Positions 1,823-43,746 of a stretch of 43,746 nucleotides of DNA are shown piece by piece. The notes beneath the pieces were generated by a model. The model made no database searches. It was not told the DNA's origin and saw nothing but the letters and a program-made list of their open reading frames with translations. The stretch is taken from sequence record PQ850621.1. The stretch is one strand, 5' to 3'. A program made the translations under genes and the position numbers. Position 1 is the stretch's first letter. Every line of letters starts with the position of its first letter. The DNA comes from Escherichia phage NicoleGrasset_Bas72.

Positions 1823-3304
1823 ATGTTAACTATGAACGGTCAGAATCAGGGTGTTAAGACAAAACACCGGGAATGGCTGCATCACTTCGATAAATGGCAG
1901 AAGGTACGCCACGCTCTTGAAGGCGACCTTATCCGCTATCTGCGCAACGTCGGGAAGAACGAGCCTGACCAGACCTACGCAGCACAGCGACAGGAAGAAT
2001 ACGAGAACGGCGCTATCTGCTACAATTTCACCAAACGCACGCTGGCGGGGATGACGGGGTCAGTGATGCGCAAAGACCCTGAGCAGATTATCCCGCCTGA
2101 ACTTGAGTACCTGTTGCACAACGCTGACGGTTCAGGTGTCGGGCTGTGGCAGCACGCGCAGGATACGCTGATGGAGATTAACTCGATAGGCCGTGGCGGG
2201 TTGCTGGTGGACGCCCCGGAAACAGCCGCAGCAACGGCGGCAGAGCAGAACGCGGGATTATTAAACCCGGTAATCGCATTCTATACCGCGGAGAACATTA
2301 TCAACTGGAGACTCACCCGCATCGGTTCAGTGAACCGCGTGACGATGGTTGTATTGCGTGAGGCATGGGAATACTCGGAACCAGGCGCTGAGTTTGAAAC
2401 AAAATTCGGCGAGCAATACCGCGTCCTTGACCTGATTGACGGTCGCTACCGCCAGCGCATCTACCGCTTCGATGCCGAAGGTGGCGCACAGGATGAAGTA
2501 ATCGAAATCTTCCCGGAACTCGGCGAACAGTTGCGCGGTAAAATCCCGTTCACGTTCATTGGCGCAAGCAACAACGACGCCACTATAGACGATGCGCCTT
2601 TACTGCCGTTATCTGAGCTAAATATAGGACACTTCAGAAATTCGGCCGATGTGGAAGAGGCCAGCTTTATAGTAGGTCAACCGACACTGTTCATTGCCCC
2701 CGGCGAGAACATGAGCATGGAGCAGTGGAAAGAAGCCAACCCACACGGCATACGCATGGGGTCGCGTTCAGGCCACAACATCGGCTCCGGCGGAAATGCG
2801 TTTCTGGTTCAGGCGGCGGAAACTAACCTCGCCAAACAGAACATGCTGGATAAAGAGAATCAGGCCATCCAGATTGGCGCGCAGCTTATCACCCCGACGC
2901 AGCAAATCACCGCGGAATCGGCCCGCCTGCAACGCGGCGCCGACACGTCAGTCATGGCAACAATAGCACGTAATGTAAGCATGGCGTATACCGATGCGTT
3001 GCGCTGGGTTGCGGGTATGCTTGGGCTTAGTGAAGATACTGAGATTGAGTTCAAGCTGAATATGGAATTCTTCCTGCAACCTATGACAGCTCAGGACCGC
3101 GCTCAGTGGATGGCGGATATTAACGCTGGCCTGCTACCCGCCACCGCTTACTATGCTGCGTTGCGCAAGGCAGGTGTGACTGACTGGACAGATGAGGACA
3201 TTCAGAACGCTATTGAAGACGCACCTCTGCCGTTGGGTTCTGTTGCTCAGGTAGCGGGAGAGATTCCGCAGTCGGCGCAGCAACAGGACACCACTCAGCA
3301 GTAA
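1823..3304 (+). CDS. portal protein
   Basis: 493 aa ORF immediately after terminase, AAGAGG SD; acidic Q-rich C-terminus; canonical gene order. Confidence 0.7.
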   Translation: MLTMNGQNQGVKTKHREWLHHFDKWQKVRHALEGDLIRYLRNVGKNEPDQTYAAQRQEEYENGAICYNFTKRTLAGMTGSVMRKDPEQIIPPELEYLLHNADGSGVGLWQHAQDTLMEINSIGRGGLLVDAPETAAATAAEQNAGLLNPVIAFYTAENIINWRLTRIGSVNRVTMVVLREAWEYSEPGAEFETKFGEQYRVLDLIDGRYRQRIYRFDAEGGAQDEVIEIFPELGEQLRGKIPFTFIGASNNDATIDDAPLLPLSELNIGHFRNSADVEEASFIVGQPTLFIAPGENMSMEQWKEANPHGIRMGSRSGHNIGSGGNAFLVQAAETNLAKQNMLDKENQAIQIGAQLITPTQQITAESARLQRGADTSVMATIARNVSMAYTDALRWVAGMLGLSEDTEIEFKLNMEFFLQPMTAQDRAQWMADINAGLLPATAYYAALRKAGVTDWTDEDIQNAIEDAPLPLGSVAQVAGEIPQSAQQQDTTQQ

Positions 3305-3312
3305 GTTCACCT

Positions 3313-3336
3313 ATAGCCCCGAAAGGGGCTTTCTTA
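3313..3336 (+). terminator. hairpin plus short T-tract between portal and head-morphogenesis genes (attenuator-like)
   Basis: AGCCCC gaaa GGGGCT then TTCTT. Confidence 0.35.
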
Positions 3337-3340
3337 TAGT

Positions 3341-4417
3341 ATGCTATTAACTTTAGCGCCACAGGGTTTATCTATGAGCTTACTTACATCCCTAATCAGC
3401 CATCAGATATGGCTGCAACGCACCGCATCCGGTGAAGTGAAAGACCTCACGCCGTTCATTCAGGAGATAAGGGATGAAATCAAACGGCAGGTGCTGTTAT
3501 TCGGTGACGACGGTCGCAGCACTGCGCGACTGAATAAACTGTTACGCGACCTGGAAGAAGCACTAACCGGTATTACGGGTGACTGGCAAACAAAGCTAAC
3601 AGACGACCTTAAGGAACTGGCGGCGTACGAGGCTGAGTGGAACGTAAAGACACTGACCGCCAACGTAGACGCGGAATTTGTTACGCCTACCGCTGAGCAG
3701 GTATGGGCCGCTGCCGAGTTTCAACCATTATCATTGAGCGACAAGCCCGTTGATTTCACCAAGCTGATGTCTGGATGGGGCGAAACGGAAGTAGCACGTC
3801 TTGTAACTGGAGTTAAGATGGGCTTTGTGCAAGGTCAAACCACACGGCAGATTGTTAAGAATGTTGTTGGCGCTGGTGGACTAGCCGACATCTCAGAACG
3901 TAACGCGACTACGGTAATCCGCACCGCGCTGTCCCACGTATCCAACGAGGCCCGTAACGAGACGTACCGCCAGAACGACGACATCATCGAGAAGTACGAG
4001 TGGGTGTCAACGCTTGACAGCCGCACCAGTACGATTTGCAGGGTCAGAGACGGGATGACGTGGGAAATTGGTAAGGGGCCGATGCCCCCAGCCCATCCGA
4101 ACTGCCGGTCGTGCACGGCTCCGGTAATCAGTTCCGAGTTCGACTTCCTCGATAAAGGCGCAAAACGCGCGGCTAAAGGCGCGGAAGGTGGCACTCAGGT
4201 AAGCGCAGACACCACTTACTACGAGTTCCTTAAACAACAACCGGCGTGGTTTCAGGACCAGGCGCTCGGCCCGGTGCGAGGTAAGATTTTCCGTAACAGC
4301 GGTATATCGCCGGAAGAGTTTCGCGTAATATCTGTAGATGGTTTCGGGAATCCGCTCACGCTTAAGCAGATGGCGGAACTCGATAAACGTGTTGCTGATT
4401 ATCTGAAAGGGGAATAA
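3341..4417 (+). CDS. head morphogenesis protein (Mu F / SPP1 gp7-like)
   Basis: 358 aa ORF after portal; canonical position; family assignment from memory of this module, not from a search. Confidence 0.6.
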   Translation: MLLTLAPQGLSMSLLTSLISHQIWLQRTASGEVKDLTPFIQEIRDEIKRQVLLFGDDGRSTARLNKLLRDLEEALTGITGDWQTKLTDDLKELAAYEAEWNVKTLTANVDAEFVTPTAEQVWAAAEFQPLSLSDKPVDFTKLMSGWGETEVARLVTGVKMGFVQGQTTRQIVKNVVGAGGLADISERNATTVIRTALSHVSNEARNETYRQNDDIIEKYEWVSTLDSRTSTICRVRDGMTWEIGKGPMPPAHPNCRSCTAPVISSEFDFLDKGAKRAAKGAEGGTQVSADTTYYEFLKQQPAWFQDQALGPVRGKIFRNSGISPEEFRVISVDGFGNPLTLKQMAELDKRVADYLKGE

Positions 4418-4878
4418 TGATGGGCTTTTTCAAAGTAACTGACGTACCGTCTCGTCGCGTAGTCCAGTACGCCCGCGTGTCTGGCTCTGGCGAGAACGTG
4501 GTATTTATTGAGGACGAAAGTGTACTCGGTACACCGGTAGATGATATGCCGTTTGCAGATAAAACCGGTATTGCGTTGCCCGCCGCCGGTATGCTTTATG
4601 AAATTCCGTATCTGGCGGACGCTGGCGACGTGTATTTCTCTGCGCAACCGCAGGACGCTGAACTGGCGGGCGGCAGCGCAACCATCACTGTCGAGGTTAA
4701 GGCAGGCAAAGCGCCGTATTCTCTGACCTGGTACAAAGACGGTAAGGAAGTGGTGAATGCGCCTGAGGAGGCTCTGTCTCTGACGGTTAATGCGGTCGGC
4801 GAATACTTCGTTAAAGTTACTGATGCCGATGGAGTAGAGGCGGTAAGCAAAGCGGCGAAGGTTACTAAGCCAGAATGA
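4417..4878 (+). CDS. Ig-like domain protein (head-associated)
   Basis: ATGA overlap with upstream gene; C-terminal segment PYSLTWYKDGKEV...GEYFVKVTDADG resembles Ig-like (Big/I-set) fold and is paralogous to 8190-8540. Confidence 0.55.
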   Translation: MMGFFKVTDVPSRRVVQYARVSGSGENVVFIEDESVLGTPVDDMPFADKTGIALPAAGMLYEIPYLADAGDVYFSAQPQDAELAGGSATITVEVKAGKAPYSLTWYKDGKEVVNAPEEALSLTVNAVGEYFVKVTDADGVEAVSKAAKVTKPE

Positions 4879-4880
4879 TA

Positions 4881-4909
4881 AAAGGCCCCATTATGGGGCC
4901 TTAGTTTTC
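4881..4909. terminator. rho-independent terminator, likely bidirectional
   Basis: AGGCCCCA tta TGGGGCCT then TAGTTTT; A-run on the other side; between convergent genes. Confidence 0.6.
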
Positions 4910-5111
4910 AACGGAATCTTGTGTTTAAATCCTGCTCATGGACAACCCTCAGAACAGTGTCATAATCCCCGTATCTTCCAGGTTCAAATATATCTAATGC
5001 CTTGTAAGCAGACATTGCGTCAGGGAAAACCTGCAGAACCTTTTTAACCCGGCACAAGTCACCGTCGAACTCTTCATCGAACTCTTGAACTACTTCGCAA
5101 ATTGCATACAT
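4908..5111 (-). CDS. hypothetical protein, 67 aa, acidic
   Basis: ATG with AGGAGGTG SD; sits between bidirectional terminator 4881-4909 and minus-strand promoter 5139-5167. Confidence 0.5.
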   Translation of the reverse strand: MYAICEVVQEFDEEFDGDLCRVKKVLQVFPDAMSAYKALDIFEPGRYGDYDTVLRVVHEQDLNTRFR

Positions 5112-5138
5112 TTTTCACCTCCTGTTTAAGTTAACTGA

Positions 5139-5167
5139 ATAGTACCCTATTATATTGGGGTGTGCAA
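5139..5167 (-). promoter_or_regulatory. promoter, TTGCAC-N17-TACTAT family
   Basis: On minus strand: TTGCAC, 17-nt spacer accccaatataataggg, TACTAT; drives 4908-5111. Confidence 0.55.
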
Positions 5168-5242
5168 ACTATTTATTTACGTATTCCATTTATTCCACTA
5201 AATTGTAAATATTGGAATAAACTATTCGAATAGTTGACTTTT

Positions 5243-5271
5243 CACTGAAAATGTGCTAAGCTCCACCTGAG
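5243..5271 (+). promoter_or_regulatory. promoter candidate TTGACT-N17-TAAGCT overlapped by a 16-bp palindrome
   Basis: -35 TTGACT at 5243-5248, -10 TAAGCT at 5266-5271; palindrome AACTATTCGAATAGTT at 5229-5244 overlaps the -35. Confidence 0.35.
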
Positions 5272-5439
5272 CTTGTGAAGTATGAACAAGCGACCGCGGC
5301 GCGGGCAGGTAACGGAGCGGGACGTAAGTCCTGAGTGTAGTTACGCTGACGCGTTCGGAAGGGCCATACTCTATTGCTTGTGTAAAAAGTAACAGGTTTA
5401 CTTAGATTACGCCGTTTCTATGTTTAAATGATAAGGACT

Positions 5440-5470
5440 AGCGCCCTGCTTTAAGGCAGGGCTTTACTTA
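5440..5470 (+). terminator. terminator-like hairpin upstream of the spanin genes
   Basis: GCCCTGC tttaag GCAGGGC then TTTACTTA. Confidence 0.4.
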
Positions 5471-5486
5471 TCGAGAAAGGAGAAAC

Positions 5487-5873
5487 ATGAATCTTAAAGC
5501 AACTGTCGTAGCGGGAGCATGTTTCATCATCCTGGCTTACACACACGGCATCTACCAGTACCGCATCGGCTGGAACGAAGGCCGGGCGAATCTCGTTTCT
5601 CAGCAACAGCAGAAAGCACAGGCCGAGATGACTAAGAAAACACAACGGCAGCAGCAGGACGAATCAAAGGCCGCAGCCGCTGACAACGAAGGCAAGACGA
5701 AATCAGAGGTGATCACCCGTGAAGTCGTTAAGTACATTAAAACGCCTGGTCGCAGCGGGTGCACTTTTGACCCTGAGCGCGTGCAGCTCAAGTCCCGCGC
5801 CGTCGCAAACGCTAATTCCATTACCGGATACGACGATGATGCAGCCTCCGTGCAAACTGGCAGCGCCAAGTAG
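5487..5873 (+). CDS. putative i-spanin (Rz-like)
   Basis: AAGGAG SD; N-terminal TM segment ATVVAGACFIILAYTHGIY followed by Q/K/E-rich coiled-coil-like periplasmic region; contains an embedded lipoprotein ORF in another frame. Confidence 0.6.
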   Translation: MNLKATVVAGACFIILAYTHGIYQYRIGWNEGRANLVSQQQQKAQAEMTKKTQRQQQDESKAAAADNEGKTKSEVITREVVKYIKTPGRSGCTFDPERVQLKSRAVANANSITGYDDDAASVQTGSAK

Positions 5874-5982
5874 CGATGCTGACGAGGATTTGGCTATAGA
5901 CGTTCAGAACGCCGAATGCGTGCGGCAACTGCGTCTGAAAGTATTCCAGTTGCAGGATTATGTGAGGAATATTCTGGAATAG
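5719..5982 (+). CDS. putative o-spanin (Rz1-like outer-membrane lipoprotein), GTG start
   Basis: Signal peptide with lipobox LSAC (MKSLSTLKRLVAAGALLTLSAC), Pro-rich mature region; starts inside 5487-5873 in a different frame and extends past it. Confidence 0.55.
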   Translation: MKSLSTLKRLVAAGALLTLSACSSSPAPSQTLIPLPDTTMMQPPCKLAAPSSDADEDLAIDVQNAECVRQLRLKVFQLQDYVRNILE

Positions 5983-6064
5983 TTGCCTTGCATGTTGGAA
6001 TAATTTATTCTTGACATGTAAATCCGGGTGGCCCGGGTTCCAACGTCCAGGGGACATACTGACT

Positions 6065-6766
6065 ATGAATCGTTTTTTACGTTATCCGTTCCAGGAAGAA
6101 GCTGGGGCAGAAGATAAAGCTGGTGGCGGTGACGCGCCGAAAATGTTCACCGCTGAAGAAGTTCAGGCGCTGATTGAGAAAGAAGTTGCCGGGCTTAAGG
6201 CTAATCAGGAAGCATTGTTGGCGGAGAAGAAAGAAGCCGCTCGCAAAGCAAAAGAGGCCGAAGAAGAACGGCAGCGCGCGCACCAGGAGGCGTTAAAAGC
6301 CGCTGGTAAGATGGATGAGTTCGAAAAGACGATTCGTAGCCAGTATGACCCGGTGTTAGCCGAGAAAGACGGTCGCATCTCCAGAATGGCAGAGCGTATC
6401 CTCGGCAGCGAACGTAAAGCGGTGCTAGGCTCTTTCGCGGGTGACTTTATTACCCCAGAAGCAGTGGACATTCTTGCGCCGTTCGTTAAGACTGAGTTCG
6501 AAGGCGATGATGTGGTTACTAAGTTTGTTGGTGCAGACGGTAACGTAATCACGACTGACCCGGAACAGTTCCGCAAATACCTGCGCGAACACAAGGCGTT
6601 TTCGCATTTGATCAAAGCAAATGCAGCTTCCGGCGGCGGGGCTTCCGGTAGCAAAGGCGGCGGGGCCGCACCAGCGTTTAAAGACATGAGTGAAGCAGAG
6701 CGTTTAGCCCTGTATAAATCGAACCCTGCCGAATTTGAACGGCAACTTAAAGCCCTGAGGAAATAA
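6065..6766 (+). CDS. putative capsid scaffolding protein
   Basis: A/E/K-rich helical sequence (EALLAEKKEAARKAKEAEEERQRAHQEALKAAGK) directly upstream of major capsid gene; first in-frame ATG is at 6065. Confidence 0.6.
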   Translation: MNRFLRYPFQEEAGAEDKAGGGDAPKMFTAEEVQALIEKEVAGLKANQEALLAEKKEAARKAKEAEEERQRAHQEALKAAGKMDEFEKTIRSQYDPVLAEKDGRISRMAERILGSERKAVLGSFAGDFITPEAVDILAPFVKTEFEGDDVVTKFVGADGNVITTDPEQFRKYLREHKAFSHLIKANAASGGGASGSKGGGAAPAFKDMSEAERLALYKSNPAEFERQLKALRK

Positions 6767-6768
6767 TA

Positions 6769-7818
6769 ATGGCAATTACCACTATCGGCGATATCGTAAC
6801 TGGCAACATCCCGGTCCTGGCGTCTTATATGACCGAGGACCCGGTAGAAAAAACCGCGTTCTTCCAGTCTGGTATTCTGACCCCGACCCCATACGCCGCC
6901 GAGATTGCCCGCGGCCCGTCCAACGTCGCTAATATTCCTTTCTGGAAAGCGATTGATACCTCTATCGAGCCGAACTACTCGAACGACGTATACCAGGACA
7001 TCGCCACCCCGCGTAACGTGCAGACCGGCGAGATGATGGCCCGCGTTGCATACCTGAACGAAGGTTTCGGTCAGGCGGATTTGACTGTCGAACTGACCAG
7101 CCAGAACCCGCTGCAATCCGTAGCGTCCCGTCTGGATAACTTCTGGCAGCGCCAGGCACAACGCCGTCTGATTGCTACCGCGCTCGGTCTGTACAACGAC
7201 AACGTAGCTGCTACCGATGCTTACCACGAGCAGAACGACATGGTTATCGACGTGTCTGCTACTCTGGGCTTCGATGTGGGCGCGTTCATCGACGCTACCC
7301 AGACTATGGGCGATGCTCTGATGGGCAACGGCGGTGAAGTGCTGGGGGCTATCGCGATGCATAGCTTCGTTTATGCGCAGGCACGTAAGCAGCAGCTTAT
7401 CGACTTCATCCGTGACGCGGACAACAACACCATGTTCGCCACCTACCAGGGCTACCGCGTGATTGTTGACGACAGCATGACCGTAGTCGGCACTGGCCCG
7501 ACCCGTAAGTTCATCTCCATCATCTTCGGCAACGGCGCTATCGGTTACGGTGAAGGTTCTCCGTCCAACCCGCTGGAATACGAGCGCGAAGCGTCCCGCG
7601 GCAACGGCGGCGGCGTTGAAACCCTGTGGACCCGTAAGACCTGGTTGCTACATCCGTTTGGTTACAGCTTCACCAGCGCAGTAATCACCGGTAACGGCAC
7701 CGAGACTGTCGCACGTTCTGCTTCCTGGCAGGACCTGGCGAACGCCTCTAACTGGAGCCGTGTTGTTGACCGTAAGCACGTACCGATTGCCTTCCTGGTA
7801 ACTGGTGTCGGTGCTTAA
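6769..7818 (+). CDS. major capsid protein
   Basis: 349 aa ORF with AGGAA SD after scaffold gene; followed by strong terminator 7834-7863, typical of a highly expressed capsid gene. Confidence 0.7.
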   Translation: MAITTIGDIVTGNIPVLASYMTEDPVEKTAFFQSGILTPTPYAAEIARGPSNVANIPFWKAIDTSIEPNYSNDVYQDIATPRNVQTGEMMARVAYLNEGFGQADLTVELTSQNPLQSVASRLDNFWQRQAQRRLIATALGLYNDNVAATDAYHEQNDMVIDVSATLGFDVGAFIDATQTMGDALMGNGGEVLGAIAMHSFVYAQARKQQLIDFIRDADNNTMFATYQGYRVIVDDSMTVVGTGPTRKFISIIFGNGAIGYGEGSPSNPLEYEREASRGNGGGVETLWTRKTWLLHPFGYSFTSAVITGNGTETVARSASWQDLANASNWSRVVDRKHVPIAFLVTGVGA

Positions 7819-37155: not shown

Positions 37156-37250
37156 TTATATCCCCTGTTTGTTTAGTGAAACCGAGTATAGGATAGCGGG
37201 AATGTAAAAGCAACCAACCCCTGCAATATTTAATCTTTACAAAAAAGTTA

Positions 37251-37280
37251 TTGAAAGTTCTTGACACATGTTTGTATAAT
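37251..37280 (+). promoter_or_regulatory. sigma70-like promoter candidate TTGAAA-N18-TATAAT
   Basis: In divergent control region; would transcribe through palindrome 37307-37347 toward hairpin 37482-37510. Confidence 0.35.
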
Positions 37281-37306
37281 GGTTTTGGGACTTGTATATA
37301 TATTAC

Positions 37307-37347
37307 GGAGTTGACGAACCCTCCCCGAGGGATTCGTCAACCCCTCC
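37307..37347. promoter_or_regulatory. long imperfect palindrome (operator or RNA stem candidate)
   Basis: GTTGACGAACCCTC ... GAGGGATTCGTCAAC, arms about 14 bp with a short central spacer and one bulge. Confidence 0.4.
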
Positions 37348-37481
37348 CAGACAGCTGAGATGCTTGCCTTGTGGTTTAAGGATAAGTGTATCTAAATCTC
37401 ATTTAAAGAAGTAACCCGCTGAAATATCTACTGTTTCTTAATGTGCCGTAGATTCGCAACCGTAAAAATGTAACGATTATT

Positions 37482-37510
37482 GGGCAGGCTTAGGGCCTGC
37501 CCTTTAGTTA
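37482..37510 (+). terminator. terminator-like hairpin in divergent control region
   Basis: GGGCAGGC ttagg GCCTGCCC then TTTAGTT. Confidence 0.4.
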
Positions 37511-37574
37511 CCAAGTAATAAGAATAAAGGCACAACAGTTTCGAAAGAATCACAACGGCAACGTAACTATTCTC

Positions 37575-37603
37575 TTGCACACCCCAACATAATAGGATAC
37601 TAT
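37575..37603 (+). promoter_or_regulatory. promoter, TTGCAC-N17-TACTAT family
   Basis: TTGCAC, spacer accccaacataatagga, TACTAT; about 35 nt upstream of gene at 37638. Confidence 0.55.
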
Positions 37604-37637
37604 TCACTTATCGAAACGAGACAGAGGAGTGAGGGTT

Positions 37638-37829
37638 ATGTTTAAGAAGGGTCAGTTGGTTAAAACTAAACGCGGAGGGCAATATGTATTAGTGTTGCAG
37701 GACGAGAGCGAGTATGACGAGGATAATCTGGTTGACGTATGGGGTCTGGTAAGAAAGAAAACTGGGTTCGCCTCCCGCGATAATTTAGAACTCATCGGCA
37801 ACAATTTTAAATTCAAAGGGACGAAGTGA
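37638..37829 (+). CDS. small early protein
   Basis: GAGGAG SD 8 nt before ATG 37638; downstream of promoter 37575-37603. Confidence 0.5.
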   Translation: MFKKGQLVKTKRGGQYVLVLQDESEYDEDNLVDVWGLVRKKTGFASRDNLELIGNNFKFKGTK

Positions 37830-40615: not shown

Positions 40616-40924
40616 TTGGATAAATTTACTGAAACAGTGACGGGGTGGCTTCTCGCTGCCGCATTAGCTGGTGGGGTAATAGGCTTACGGCAACACAAAG
40701 CCACTATTACCGGCCCTGTCGATGCTCTCTGTTTTCTCGCCACTGGCTTTGCGTGCGCCGTATTCGGTGCGCCTCTCGCCGCTCAATGGTTCGGTATCGC
40801 AGGTGAACGCGAAATAGCGGGCCTTGGATTCATCATTGCTATTCTCTGGATGCCAATTTATTCCCGTCTCTCTGGCATTGTCGCCGGAGAATACATCGCA
40901 CGTCGCGGAGGTGGTAATGAATGA
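40616..40924 (+). CDS. putative holin (TTG start)
   Basis: Multiple TM-like hydrophobic segments, charged C-terminus RRGGGNE; GGAGGA SD 7 nt before TTG; directly upstream of endolysin. Confidence 0.55.
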   Translation: MDKFTETVTGWLLAAALAGGVIGLRQHKATITGPVDALCFLATGFACAVFGAPLAAQWFGIAGEREIAGLGFIIAILWMPIYSRLSGIVAGEYIARRGGGNE

Positions 40925-41189
40925 GTTATTCTGGTTCGGTGGTATGCTGGCAATCGGGGGCACATCGCTGTTTAATGTGTATCATCCCAGCGTGGACGAC
41001 GGATTATTTGGCCGGGTGCTCTATATCCTGACTGCCATCGTCTGTGCTGCCGGATGTATCCACCTGTTACAGGGCAGCATGTCACCAACGCTGCCTGAGA
41101 CGTTAATCACATTAGTTGCGCTGCGTCAGATTCGCCAGGTGTGGCTGTCATACGGAGGACATAAGCGTGTCTCGAAATATTTCAGATAA
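40917..41189 (+). CDS. second membrane protein of lysis cassette (holin/antiholin-like)
   Basis: Hydrophobic segments FWFGGMLAIGGTSLF and VLYILTAIVCAAGCIHLL; overlaps both neighbours. Confidence 0.5.
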   Translation: MNELFWFGGMLAIGGTSLFNVYHPSVDDGLFGRVLYILTAIVCAAGCIHLLQGSMSPTLPETLITLVALRQIRQVWLSYGGHKRVSKYFR

Positions 41190-41655
41190 TGGATTGCATT
41201 TTACCGCCGCGTTCGAGGGATTCCGAGGAACTGCGTATCGTGCTACGCCAAATGAGAAGTACATGACTATTGGGTACGGTCATTATGGGCCAGACGTAAC
41301 GCCAGGCAAGACCATCACCCCGGGACAAGGCCTCCTGTTACTGAATCGTGATATGGCTAAGGCCGTAGCTGCGGTTGACGCAGCAGCACACCATTCATTG
41401 ACACAGGCACAGTTCGATGCAGTGTGCGACCTGGTATACAACGCAGGTGCTGGTGTGATTGCTGCTACTACCGGCACGGGTAAGGCACTGCGTTCTGGTG
41501 ATATTGCAACGCTGCGGGCTAAGCTGACACTGTTCATCAACCAGAACGGCAGACCGTTACTTGGACTGCGTCGTCGTACCGCCGGTCGTCTGGCGCTGTT
41601 CGACGGTAAACCGTGGCAAGAGGCAGAGGCTATCGGGCGCGCGGTGAAAGGTTGA
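41167..41655 (+). CDS. endolysin, phage lysozyme (GH24, T4-lysozyme-like)
   Basis: GTG start with GGAGG SD; motifs FEGFRGTAYRATPNEKYMTIGYGH characteristic of GH24 lysozymes. Confidence 0.7.
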   Translation: MSRNISDNGLHFTAAFEGFRGTAYRATPNEKYMTIGYGHYGPDVTPGKTITPGQGLLLLNRDMAKAVAAVDAAAHHSLTQAQFDAVCDLVYNAGAGVIAATTGTGKALRSGDIATLRAKLTLFINQNGRPLLGLRRRTAGRLALFDGKPWQEAEAIGRAVKG

Positions 41656-43667: not shown

Positions 43668-43692
43668 AAGCCCTCTACGGAGGGCTTTTCTG
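43668..43692 (+). terminator. rho-independent terminator at end of early gene block
   Basis: GCCCTC tacg GAGGGC then TTTTC. Confidence 0.6.
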
Positions 43693-43746
43693 TACATCCC
43701 GCCCAATCCCCTTATATAATCCCTTTAGACGCGTAGGGCGCGTCTG

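Follow-up and report, generated by a model that had tools for sequence, protein, structure and literature searches.

The two overlapping open reading frames (ORFs) at positions 5487–5982 of Escherichia phage NicoleGrasset_Bas72 (PQ850621.1; the whole stretch of 43,746 nt that was analysed is referred to as the window, and all coordinates are on the plus strand unless stated otherwise) very probably, i.e. with a probability of about 90%, encode the two-component spanin of a Kagunavirus-like siphophage and belong to the overlapped 'Jersey' family, as judged from sequence. An overlapped two-component spanin had been proposed in an initial annotation, and spanin matches in PHROGs, an overlap of 155 nt in the +1 frame, a lipobox and the conservation of the pair all speak for it.

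The overlapping genes and their genome setting

The i-spanin gene (5487–5873), as defined by its ORF, translation, match to phrog_2536 and hydropathy, starts with ATG, is preceded by the Shine-Dalgarno sequence AAGGAG (5477–5482) and encodes 128 amino acids. Its sole hydrophobic segment is N-terminal, comprising about residues 3–23 on the Kyte-Doolittle scale. The mean hydropathy is 2.17 for residues 3–17 (15 aa) and 1.59 for residues 5–23 (19 aa), the latter being slightly below the cut-off of 1.6 and pointing to a short membrane helix. Beyond this segment the protein is charged and rich in Gln and Ala, its hydropathy never rises above −0.15 after residue 30, and a single Cys, Cys92, is located in the predicted periplasmic part. 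A single-sequence AF2 model of low confidence (mean pLDDT 62) contains two helices, residues 3–64 (pLDDT 75–89), which cover the N-terminal hydrophobic segment, and 69–80, with the last 50 residues being poorly defined (pLDDT <50). The model is compatible with an i-spanin, which we take as weak evidence. The protein matches phrog_2536 ('Rz-like spanin') with an E-value of 2e-54, so that this match and the N-terminal hydrophobic segment agree with the Rz-like membrane protein originally proposed.

The o-spanin gene (5719–5982), as defined by its ORF, PHROG matches and conservation, starts with GTG, 8 nt downstream of the Shine-Dalgarno sequence GAGGTGA (5706–5712), and lies in the +1 frame of the i-spanin gene. 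The two genes share 155 nt of dual-coding DNA (5719–5873), and past the i-spanin stop codon the o-spanin ORF runs on for 109 nt. The arrangement is thus that of the spanin class, i.e. an adjacent pair with shared DNA and the o-spanin in the +1 frame, and the initial claim of a lipoprotein ORF in a different frame that carries the lipobox LSAC and extends beyond the first stop codon is correct. The gene encodes an 87-aa precursor with the N-terminus MKSLSTLKRLVAAGALLTLSAC, consisting of a basic N-region, a hydrophobic core and the lipobox L-S-A-C (5773–5784, found in the sequence and by a scan; the codon for Cys22 is TGC at 5782–5784). Cleavage is expected between MKSLSTLKRLVAAGALLTLSA and C, i.e. 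as MKSLSTLKRLVAAGALLTLSA/CSSSP, which would release a mature lipoprotein of 66 aa. This mature form is small and proline-rich (7 Pro), and its residue at position +2 is Ser and not Asp, in line with sorting to the outer membrane. Cys45 and Cys67 are conserved across relatives. The o-spanin matches phrog_1267 (9.6e-19) and phrog_5672 (6.5e-30), both labelled spanin.

The sequence families of λ Rz and Rz1 are represented in Pfam by models named Rz and Rz1. Searching Pfam with both spanins gave no family above the cut-off, the best matches being DUF2514 (E=0.014) and LPAM_1 (E=0.048), and, as no Pfam family reaches the threshold, no sequence link to λ Rz/Rz1 is detectable.

The window represents the entire genome of a Kagunavirus-like siphophage (Guernseyvirinae). 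Its last 350 nt and its first 350 nt are contiguous in phage KMB35 (99.9% identical, in a single alignment piece); therefore, the window sequence is circularly permuted and opened at the small terminase gene. Upstream of the spanins, the terminase genes are followed by the genes for portal (1823–3304), head morphogenesis (3341–4417) and a Hoc-like decoration protein (4417–4878). A gene for a 67-aa protein on the minus strand (4908–5111) then occupies a variable slot between the decoration gene and the block upstream of the spanins; in relatives this slot holds an HNH endonuclease, a sliding-clamp-like or a phosphatase-like gene. The genes for scaffold (6065–6766) and major capsid protein (6769–7818) are located downstream, so that the pair is indeed found between head and scaffold genes. 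A scaffold homologue is found downstream on the same strand at 57 of the 60 spanin loci. The exceptions are two Dhillonviruses, where a scaffold is annotated but too diverged for tblastn, and Klebsiella phage Kp4884-1, where the spanins come after holin and SAR-type endolysin as part of a canonical cassette.

The other lysis genes of the window lie at 40616–41655, where the assignment as holin, holin and endolysin made in the initial annotation is supported by PHROGs and Pfam alike. They comprise a holin (40616–40924; phrog_2359), a second holin or antiholin (40824/40917–41189, with 40917 as the probable start; phrog_2508) and a soluble lysozyme-type endolysin (41116/41164–41655, with 41164 as the probable start; phrog_7/33703, Pfam PF00959). 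The strand that encodes these genes also carries the terminase and head genes, which come next downstream; that the holin and endolysin genes form part of an early-gene block, as the initial annotation had it, is a conjecture. Across the junction, the distance to the i-spanin start is 7,577 nt from the endolysin stop and 8,617 nt from the holin start, close to the 8.4 kb given before. Holin, endolysin and spanins are thus not contiguous as in a canonical lysis cassette, the spanins being located downstream of the endolysin but physically apart from it. Another spanin pair or a u-spanin adjoining the endolysin was looked for and not found, neither by a lipobox scan nor among the ORFs past the endolysin, which are devoid of membrane signals. 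More generally, a six-frame lipobox scan of the whole window yielded no credible lipoprotein candidate besides 5719–5982. A unimolecular spanin of the T1 gp11 type was not found either, as the o-spanin has no C-terminal hydrophobic segment and the window contains no such ORF.

Conservation, competing readings and proposed function

Homologues of each of the two proteins were detected by tblastn in about 665 phage records, many of which carry a spanin annotation, and megablast with 5300–6100 gave 209 phage records, the best being E. coli Kagunavirus phages with 95–97% identity. In all 45 related loci from GenBank and IMG/VR that were compared, both ORFs are open and in the +1 arrangement. The lipobox Cys is likewise present in 45 of 45; in 43 it was found by pattern, and the remaining two (L039 and L041) have LNGC, which the search pattern excluded, so that they were not called automatically. 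The ORF pair is retained down to 35–40% identity, i.e. in Dhillonvirus, Cornellvirus, Serratia phage Tsm2 and Klebsiella phage Kp4884-1, and relatives also keep the start codon, Shine-Dalgarno sequence and lipobox of the o-spanin. The lipoprotein ORF is therefore conserved in relatives, and selection acts on it past the overlap. Among 37 distinct 496-nt sequences of identical geometry, neither frame contains an internal stop codon, and the codon changes in the 109 nt that encode only the o-spanin are 313 synonymous versus 65 non-synonymous, with a diversity of 0.062/0.029/0.208 at codon positions 1/2/3. Thus, the o-spanin frame past the overlap is clearly under ordinary purifying selection, as a translated gene is. 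Inside the overlap, changes in the o-spanin frame are 94 synonymous versus 343 non-synonymous, i.e. this part has no purifying signal of its own. Here the i-spanin frame dominates and the signal/linker half of the o-spanin drifts, with only its character and the Cys being held.

The drift inside the overlap, where changes in the o-spanin frame are mostly non-synonymous, is what one would expect if the +1 ORF were merely a chance open frame within and past an Rz-like gene. This reading is ruled out by the conservation data, since all 45 loci are open down to 35% identity, the o-spanin-only part combines strong codon-position periodicity with the synonymous excess given above, and the remaining alternative frame is packed with stop codons. 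A different question is where translation of the +1 frame starts. It is very unlikely that this frame yields only a short product of 47/48 aa from an internal ATG (5836/5839; MMQPPCK...), although the short form alone is annotated in Bas73, Schulenberg and SETP13 and although this form underlies PHROG 5672, a profile of 47 positions. The internal ATG has no Shine-Dalgarno sequence (ggatacgacgatgATG), in contrast to the GTG at 5719. Moreover, the 40 codons upstream of the internal ATG are open and encode a basic N-region, a hydrophobic core and the lipobox Cys in every lineage, and these signal features hold even in Cornellvirus and Dhillonvirus, where the sequence is unrelated. The long form is annotated in K1ind3, and Kongari et al. 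noted that wrong o-spanin starts are common among annotations (PMC6139136). The short product would not be an outer-membrane lipoprotein because it lacks signal peptide and lipobox. Accordingly, the o-spanin is shortened and its signal peptide missing in many GenBank records and in PHROG 5672, and the GTG start should replace the one given there.

A non-lysis role of the pair at the membrane, for instance in superinfection exclusion or in masking of a receptor by the lipoprotein, would account for its position outside the lysis cassette, i.e. in the head module and 7.6 kb from the endolysin. Phage lipoproteins with functions of this kind are known, e.g. Llp of T5 and Cor. Nevertheless, we give this explanation little credence, as it is at odds with the two-component i-/o-architecture in the +1 frame, with the spanin matches in PHROGs and with the homologues within the canonical lysis cassette of Kp4884-1. 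In addition, the genome contains no other spanin candidate although spanins are normally required by phages of Gram-negative hosts, and T4 sets a precedent for unlinked spanins. The spanin role itself is supported by Kp4884-1, because its homologues (39% and 35% identity) occupy a cassette of holin, SAR-endolysin and spanin. As this spanin family occurs both in a canonical cassette and in the head module, it also offers a clean comparison of gene position and lysis timing.

Our literature search yielded no experiment in which the function of a Jersey-family spanin had been tested, and the topology of the two proteins, the formation of a complex and membrane fusion are inferred from homology and from the λ Rz/Rz1 model. 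On this basis, the N-terminal helix would hold the 128-aa i-spanin in the inner membrane, with a largely helical domain reaching into the periplasm. After export and cleavage by signal peptidase II, the 87-aa o-spanin would carry a lipid on Cys22 and, having Ser at +2, be sorted to the outer membrane. The C-terminal parts of i- and o-spanin would then bind each other, giving a complex that spans the periplasm through the peptidoglycan mesh; homotypic disulfides would be expected to involve Cys92 of the i-spanin and Cys45/Cys67 of the o-spanin. Once the holin has triggered and the endolysin has cleared the peptidoglycan, the freed complexes would fuse inner and outer membrane and thus complete lysis.

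Predicted transcription and the conserved putative leader upstream

Between the endolysin and the spanins, three terminator-like hairpins are found on the plus strand: one just before the small terminase gene (43668–43687), one after the portal gene (3315–3330) and a bidirectional one (4882–4902) that ends both the terminase-portal-head block and the minus-strand gene 4908–5111. An annotated terminator is found at the equivalent place of the latter in Schulenberg and Shemara. Downstream, a promoter-like site, TTGACT-N17-(TGc)TAAGCT (5234–5262), is near-invariant in 38 distinct relatives and is preceded by TATTCC/GGAATAA repeats (5182–5222). Its layout, but not its sequence, is shared by variants B and C. 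A generic σ70 scan missed this site because its −10 hexamer matches the consensus at only three of six positions; the hit of that scan at 4939–4966 was rejected, as it is no more than expected by chance. Terminator-like hairpins and conserved promoter-like site, taken together, make separate transcription the most likely reading, as a prediction, and the earlier suggestion that spanins and holin/endolysin are transcribed separately is thus plausible. The spanin pair would then be the promoter-proximal part of a string of spanin, scaffold and capsid genes.

The promoter-like site is part of a 300-bp block (5187–5486) that is almost invariant in 38 distinct Kagunavirus/Jerseyvirus sequences, although the identity of their i-spanins goes down to 62%. 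At the level of GenBank records, 179 of 180 matching ones have at least 94.7% identity across nearly all 262 nt of the block. Other Jerseyvirus/Cornellvirus lineages have the same layout but different sequences. A 36-aa ORF (5282–5392), listed as 'hypothetical protein' in some records, was considered as the cause of this conservation and rejected, since the ORF is not retained in the other variants and the conservation reaches well past both its ends. The part downstream of the promoter-like site (5263–5486) is a predicted leader or small RNA (sRNA), which may form a 5' hairpin (5269–5291), a GC-rich domain of nested stems (5293–5362) and a terminal hairpin with a T-tract (5441–5469), directly followed by the ribosome-binding site of the i-spanin. 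Rfam gave no match on 4850–6100 (E ≤ 1) or on the whole window (gathering thresholds), the leader has no similarity to E. coli genomes, and a literature search on promoters and terminators in Jerseyvirinae returned nothing relevant and no description of such a cassette. The cassette is the only item of this analysis for which no description was found, and it may be new.

Several observations bear on the RNA structure. The minimum free energy of the leader has a z-score of −2.55, and for variants A and B RNAalifold yields 38 predicted pairs, nine of them with compensatory changes. For the domain 5293–5362 we used a hand-registered alignment (A5) of 14 distinct versions from three lineages (A, A2 and B), as the MAFFT alignments of the leader (A1 and A4) placed the inner helices in the wrong register. 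In A5, 94.9% of the cells are paired versus 27–39% when the partners are slid by 1–3 columns, and both sides change in nine of 25 pairs; as the register was fitted by hand and only three lineages are included, these pair counts are biased towards structure, and the apparent covariation would be inflated if the aligned hairpins were non-homologous. The inner hairpin reads CGGGAC/GUCCUG, CGGUGC/GCACUG or GGGCGY/RCGCCC, depending on the lineage. A covariance model (R1) recovers only leaders of types A, A2 and B, but neither the C and D (Cornellvirus) types nor the leader at 37 kb of the window (see below), so that homology of these latter leaders is unsupported.

No second copy of the spanin leader was found within the window. 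In three IMG/VR genomes, however, a second copy (type A2) is located at the position homologous to 37.2–37.6 kb of the window, i.e. at the start of the rightward block that holds holin and endolysin further on, and several GenBank phages likewise have the leader at two places. At this site the window itself has a near-consensus promoter (37251–37280), unlike that of the spanin leader, together with a different leader that ends in a similar hairpin, GGGCAGGC-TTAG-GGCCTGCCC-TTTAG (37482–37507). Thus, each of the two rightward blocks seems to begin with a promoter-leader cassette, and these cassettes seem to be interchangeable. We tentatively consider it possible, though not probable, that 5187–5486 constitutes an undescribed phage-specific regulatory cassette, composed of repeats that might be bound by a regulator, a promoter and a structured leader of about 200 nt or an sRNA ending in a terminator-like hairpin. 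We further hypothesize that the leader might act as an attenuator or antitermination element, which would couple the two split halves of the lysis functions and head-gene expression. If true, its role would be analogous to that of λ pR'-6S-tR', although the sequences are unrelated. In any case, the promoter-leader cassette is a testable candidate for timing the expression of spanins and capsid in these virulent siphophages.

Comparison with known spanin systems

The 'Jersey' family of overlapped i-/o-spanins was described by Kongari et al. in 2018, who illustrated the overlapped class with it (PMC6139136). It includes Jersey, SETP3/7/13, K1G, K1H, K1ind1-3, HK578, JL1, SSL-2009a, SO-1 and others; in phage Jersey the genes overlap by 155 bp and Cys45 and Cys67 of the o-spanin are constant, and the i-spanin of the family was predicted to form two helices and a β-containing linker (PMC6139136). 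The window's pair has the same 155-nt overlap, +1 frame, o-spanin Cys45/Cys67 and single periplasmic i-spanin Cys, and it shares the genome position between head-morphogenesis/decoration genes and scaffold. The identities of i-/o-spanin are 91.4%/88.5% to K1ind3, 62.7%/62.4% to SETP13, 51.4%/41.3% to SO-1 and 46.9%/46.3% to SSL-2009a. The differences are confined to the signal peptide of the o-spanin, where the window has Gly14, whereas most relatives have Cys14, and to the lipobox register, which is LSAC(22) and not LASC(23). Apart from these, nothing of substance separates the window's pair from the Jersey family.

As to the spanins themselves, there is little new: family, overlap, cysteines and separation from holin and endolysin have been published in full and many database records annotate the pair, i.e. 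the finding is correct but already known. The 2010 GenBank record of K1ind3 has a 'putative spanin ... overlapping gene' at the same position, and, according to the announcement of phage Schulenberg, the overlapping spanins of this phage are encoded apart from holin/antiholin and endolysin (PMC6763661). The Schulenberg spanins are 87%/83% identical to those of the window, and the two genomes agree in gene order, down to the terminator that follows the decoration gene. Schulenberg differs in the upstream variable slot, which holds an HNH endonuclease and a sliding-clamp-like gene, and in the shortened o-spanin start annotated in its record.

Cornellvirus types (FSL_SP-031, Shemara, PhiSTP1 and TS6) resemble the window in the i-spanin, the C-terminal half of the o-spanin and the genome position, but their genes overlap by only 8 nt, being 'separated' in the terms of Kongari et al., and the signal/linker half of their o-spanin is non-homologous. 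The transition between overlapped and separated genes in these relatives has been analysed already, with FSL_SP-031, -038 and -049 overlapping by only 8 bp (PMC6139136). The overlaps that we computed equal the published numbers, being 155 nt in the window and 8 nt in each of Shemara, PhiSTP1 and TS6. In T4, the spanin genes PseT.3/PseT.2 are located away from holin (t) and endolysin (e) (PMC6139136, Fig. 8 legend). T4 thus shares the missing linkage to holin and endolysin with the window's pair, although its spanin genes are of the separated type and the sequence family is an unrelated one.

The pair shares with λ Rz/Rz1 the functional class, the predicted topology and the lipoprotein gene in the +1 frame (PMC6139136). 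In contrast to the overlapped genes of the window, however, Rz1 is embedded in Rz over its full length, and the λ pair ends the S-R-Rz/Rz1 cassette, whereas the window's pair is 7.6 kb from the endolysin. Moreover, the two pairs have no detectable sequence similarity. Taken together, the sequence comparison indicates that the window's pair would work like Rz/Rz1, yet it belongs to the Jersey and not to the Rz/Rz1 sequence family.

A near-invariant block upstream of the i-spanin gene

On its upstream side the i-spanin gene is adjoined by a non-coding block of 300 bp (window 5187-5486) that is near-invariant: 180 GenBank records match it, all but one of them (179) at 94.7% identity or more, whereas the spanins of the records carrying it diverge down to 62% identity. 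By sequence, the block contains TATTCC/GGAATAA repeats, a promoter-like TTGACT-N17-TAAGCT and a hairpin with a T-tract (5441-5469); a predicted nested-stem domain (5293-5362) shows compensatory changes. A search of the block against Rfam gave no match, and it has no similarity to E. coli. The block may combine a promoter with a structured leader or, alternatively, with an sRNA.

In some relatives, among them the IMG/VR genomes L085 (1634-1704), L101 (11361-11430) and L106 (6767-6836), a diverged second copy of this promoter-leader element heads the rightward block that carries holin and endolysin. The corresponding site in the window (37205-37640) has a promoter and leader that differ from the element, with a near-consensus promoter predicted at 37251-37280, but the terminal hairpin (37482-37507) resembles that of the element.

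Flanking regions and a possible further transcription boundary

A variable 'moron' slot (window 4879-5186) lies between a putative bidirectional terminator (4882-4902) 3' of the decoration gene and the predicted spanin promoter. In the window it holds a 67-aa ORF on the minus strand (4908-5111) and, in four related loci (L004, L006, L043 and L045), an HNH endonuclease, sliding-clamp-like, phosphatase-like or other genes.

Shortly 5' of the scaffold gene start lies a small hairpin, CCGGG-TGG-CCCGG (window 6024-6036), followed by CCAGGGGA. Its Dhillonvirus counterpart (L003, around 5985-6000) reads GCGGG-TGG-CCCGC ... CCAGGGGGA, the stem changes between the two being compensatory.

At 43668-43720 the window contains a terminator-like hairpin, AAGCCCTC-TACG-GAGGGCTT, with a T-run, after which a promoter-like TGTACA-18-TATAAT is found directly 5' of the small terminase gene. 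Together, these sequence elements suggest an additional, predicted transcription boundary separating the lysis cassette from the packaging genes.

The spanin genes and their relatives

In many GenBank records the o-spanin is annotated in a shortened form that starts at an internal ATG (MMQPPCK...; window equivalent 5836-5982), e.g. in Bas73 (5861-6004), Schulenberg (6882-7028) and SETP13 (6600-6743), and the 47-position profile PHROG 5672 likewise describes this form, which lacks both signal peptide and lipobox. It is plausible that the o-spanin starts at the conserved GTG at 5719, which has its own SD.

Kagunavirus o-spanin alleles show two lipobox registers, ...LLTLSAC (Cys22) and ...LSTMLASC (Cys23), with residues 14-23 corresponding to window 5758-5787. 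Each register is tied to one of two i-spanin variants at residues 91-103, FDPERVQLKS or FDDARVLLKS, because both are encoded by the same nucleotides. Residue 14 of the o-spanin is Gly in the window, but Cys in most relatives. In the Shemara i-spanin (GRNVRTFD) Arg replaces the otherwise conserved periplasmic Cys (GR.VCTFD); this i-spanin is therefore left without a periplasmic Cys, an unusual state, since cysteines are reported to be almost universal in spanins.

Klebsiella phage Kp4884-1 has a canonical cassette (1754-2963) of holin, SAR-type endolysin and i-spanin/o-spanin, the latter overlapping by 125 nt and being homologous to the window pair (39% and 35% identity, respectively). Thus, one spanin family is found both inside and outside lysis cassettes.
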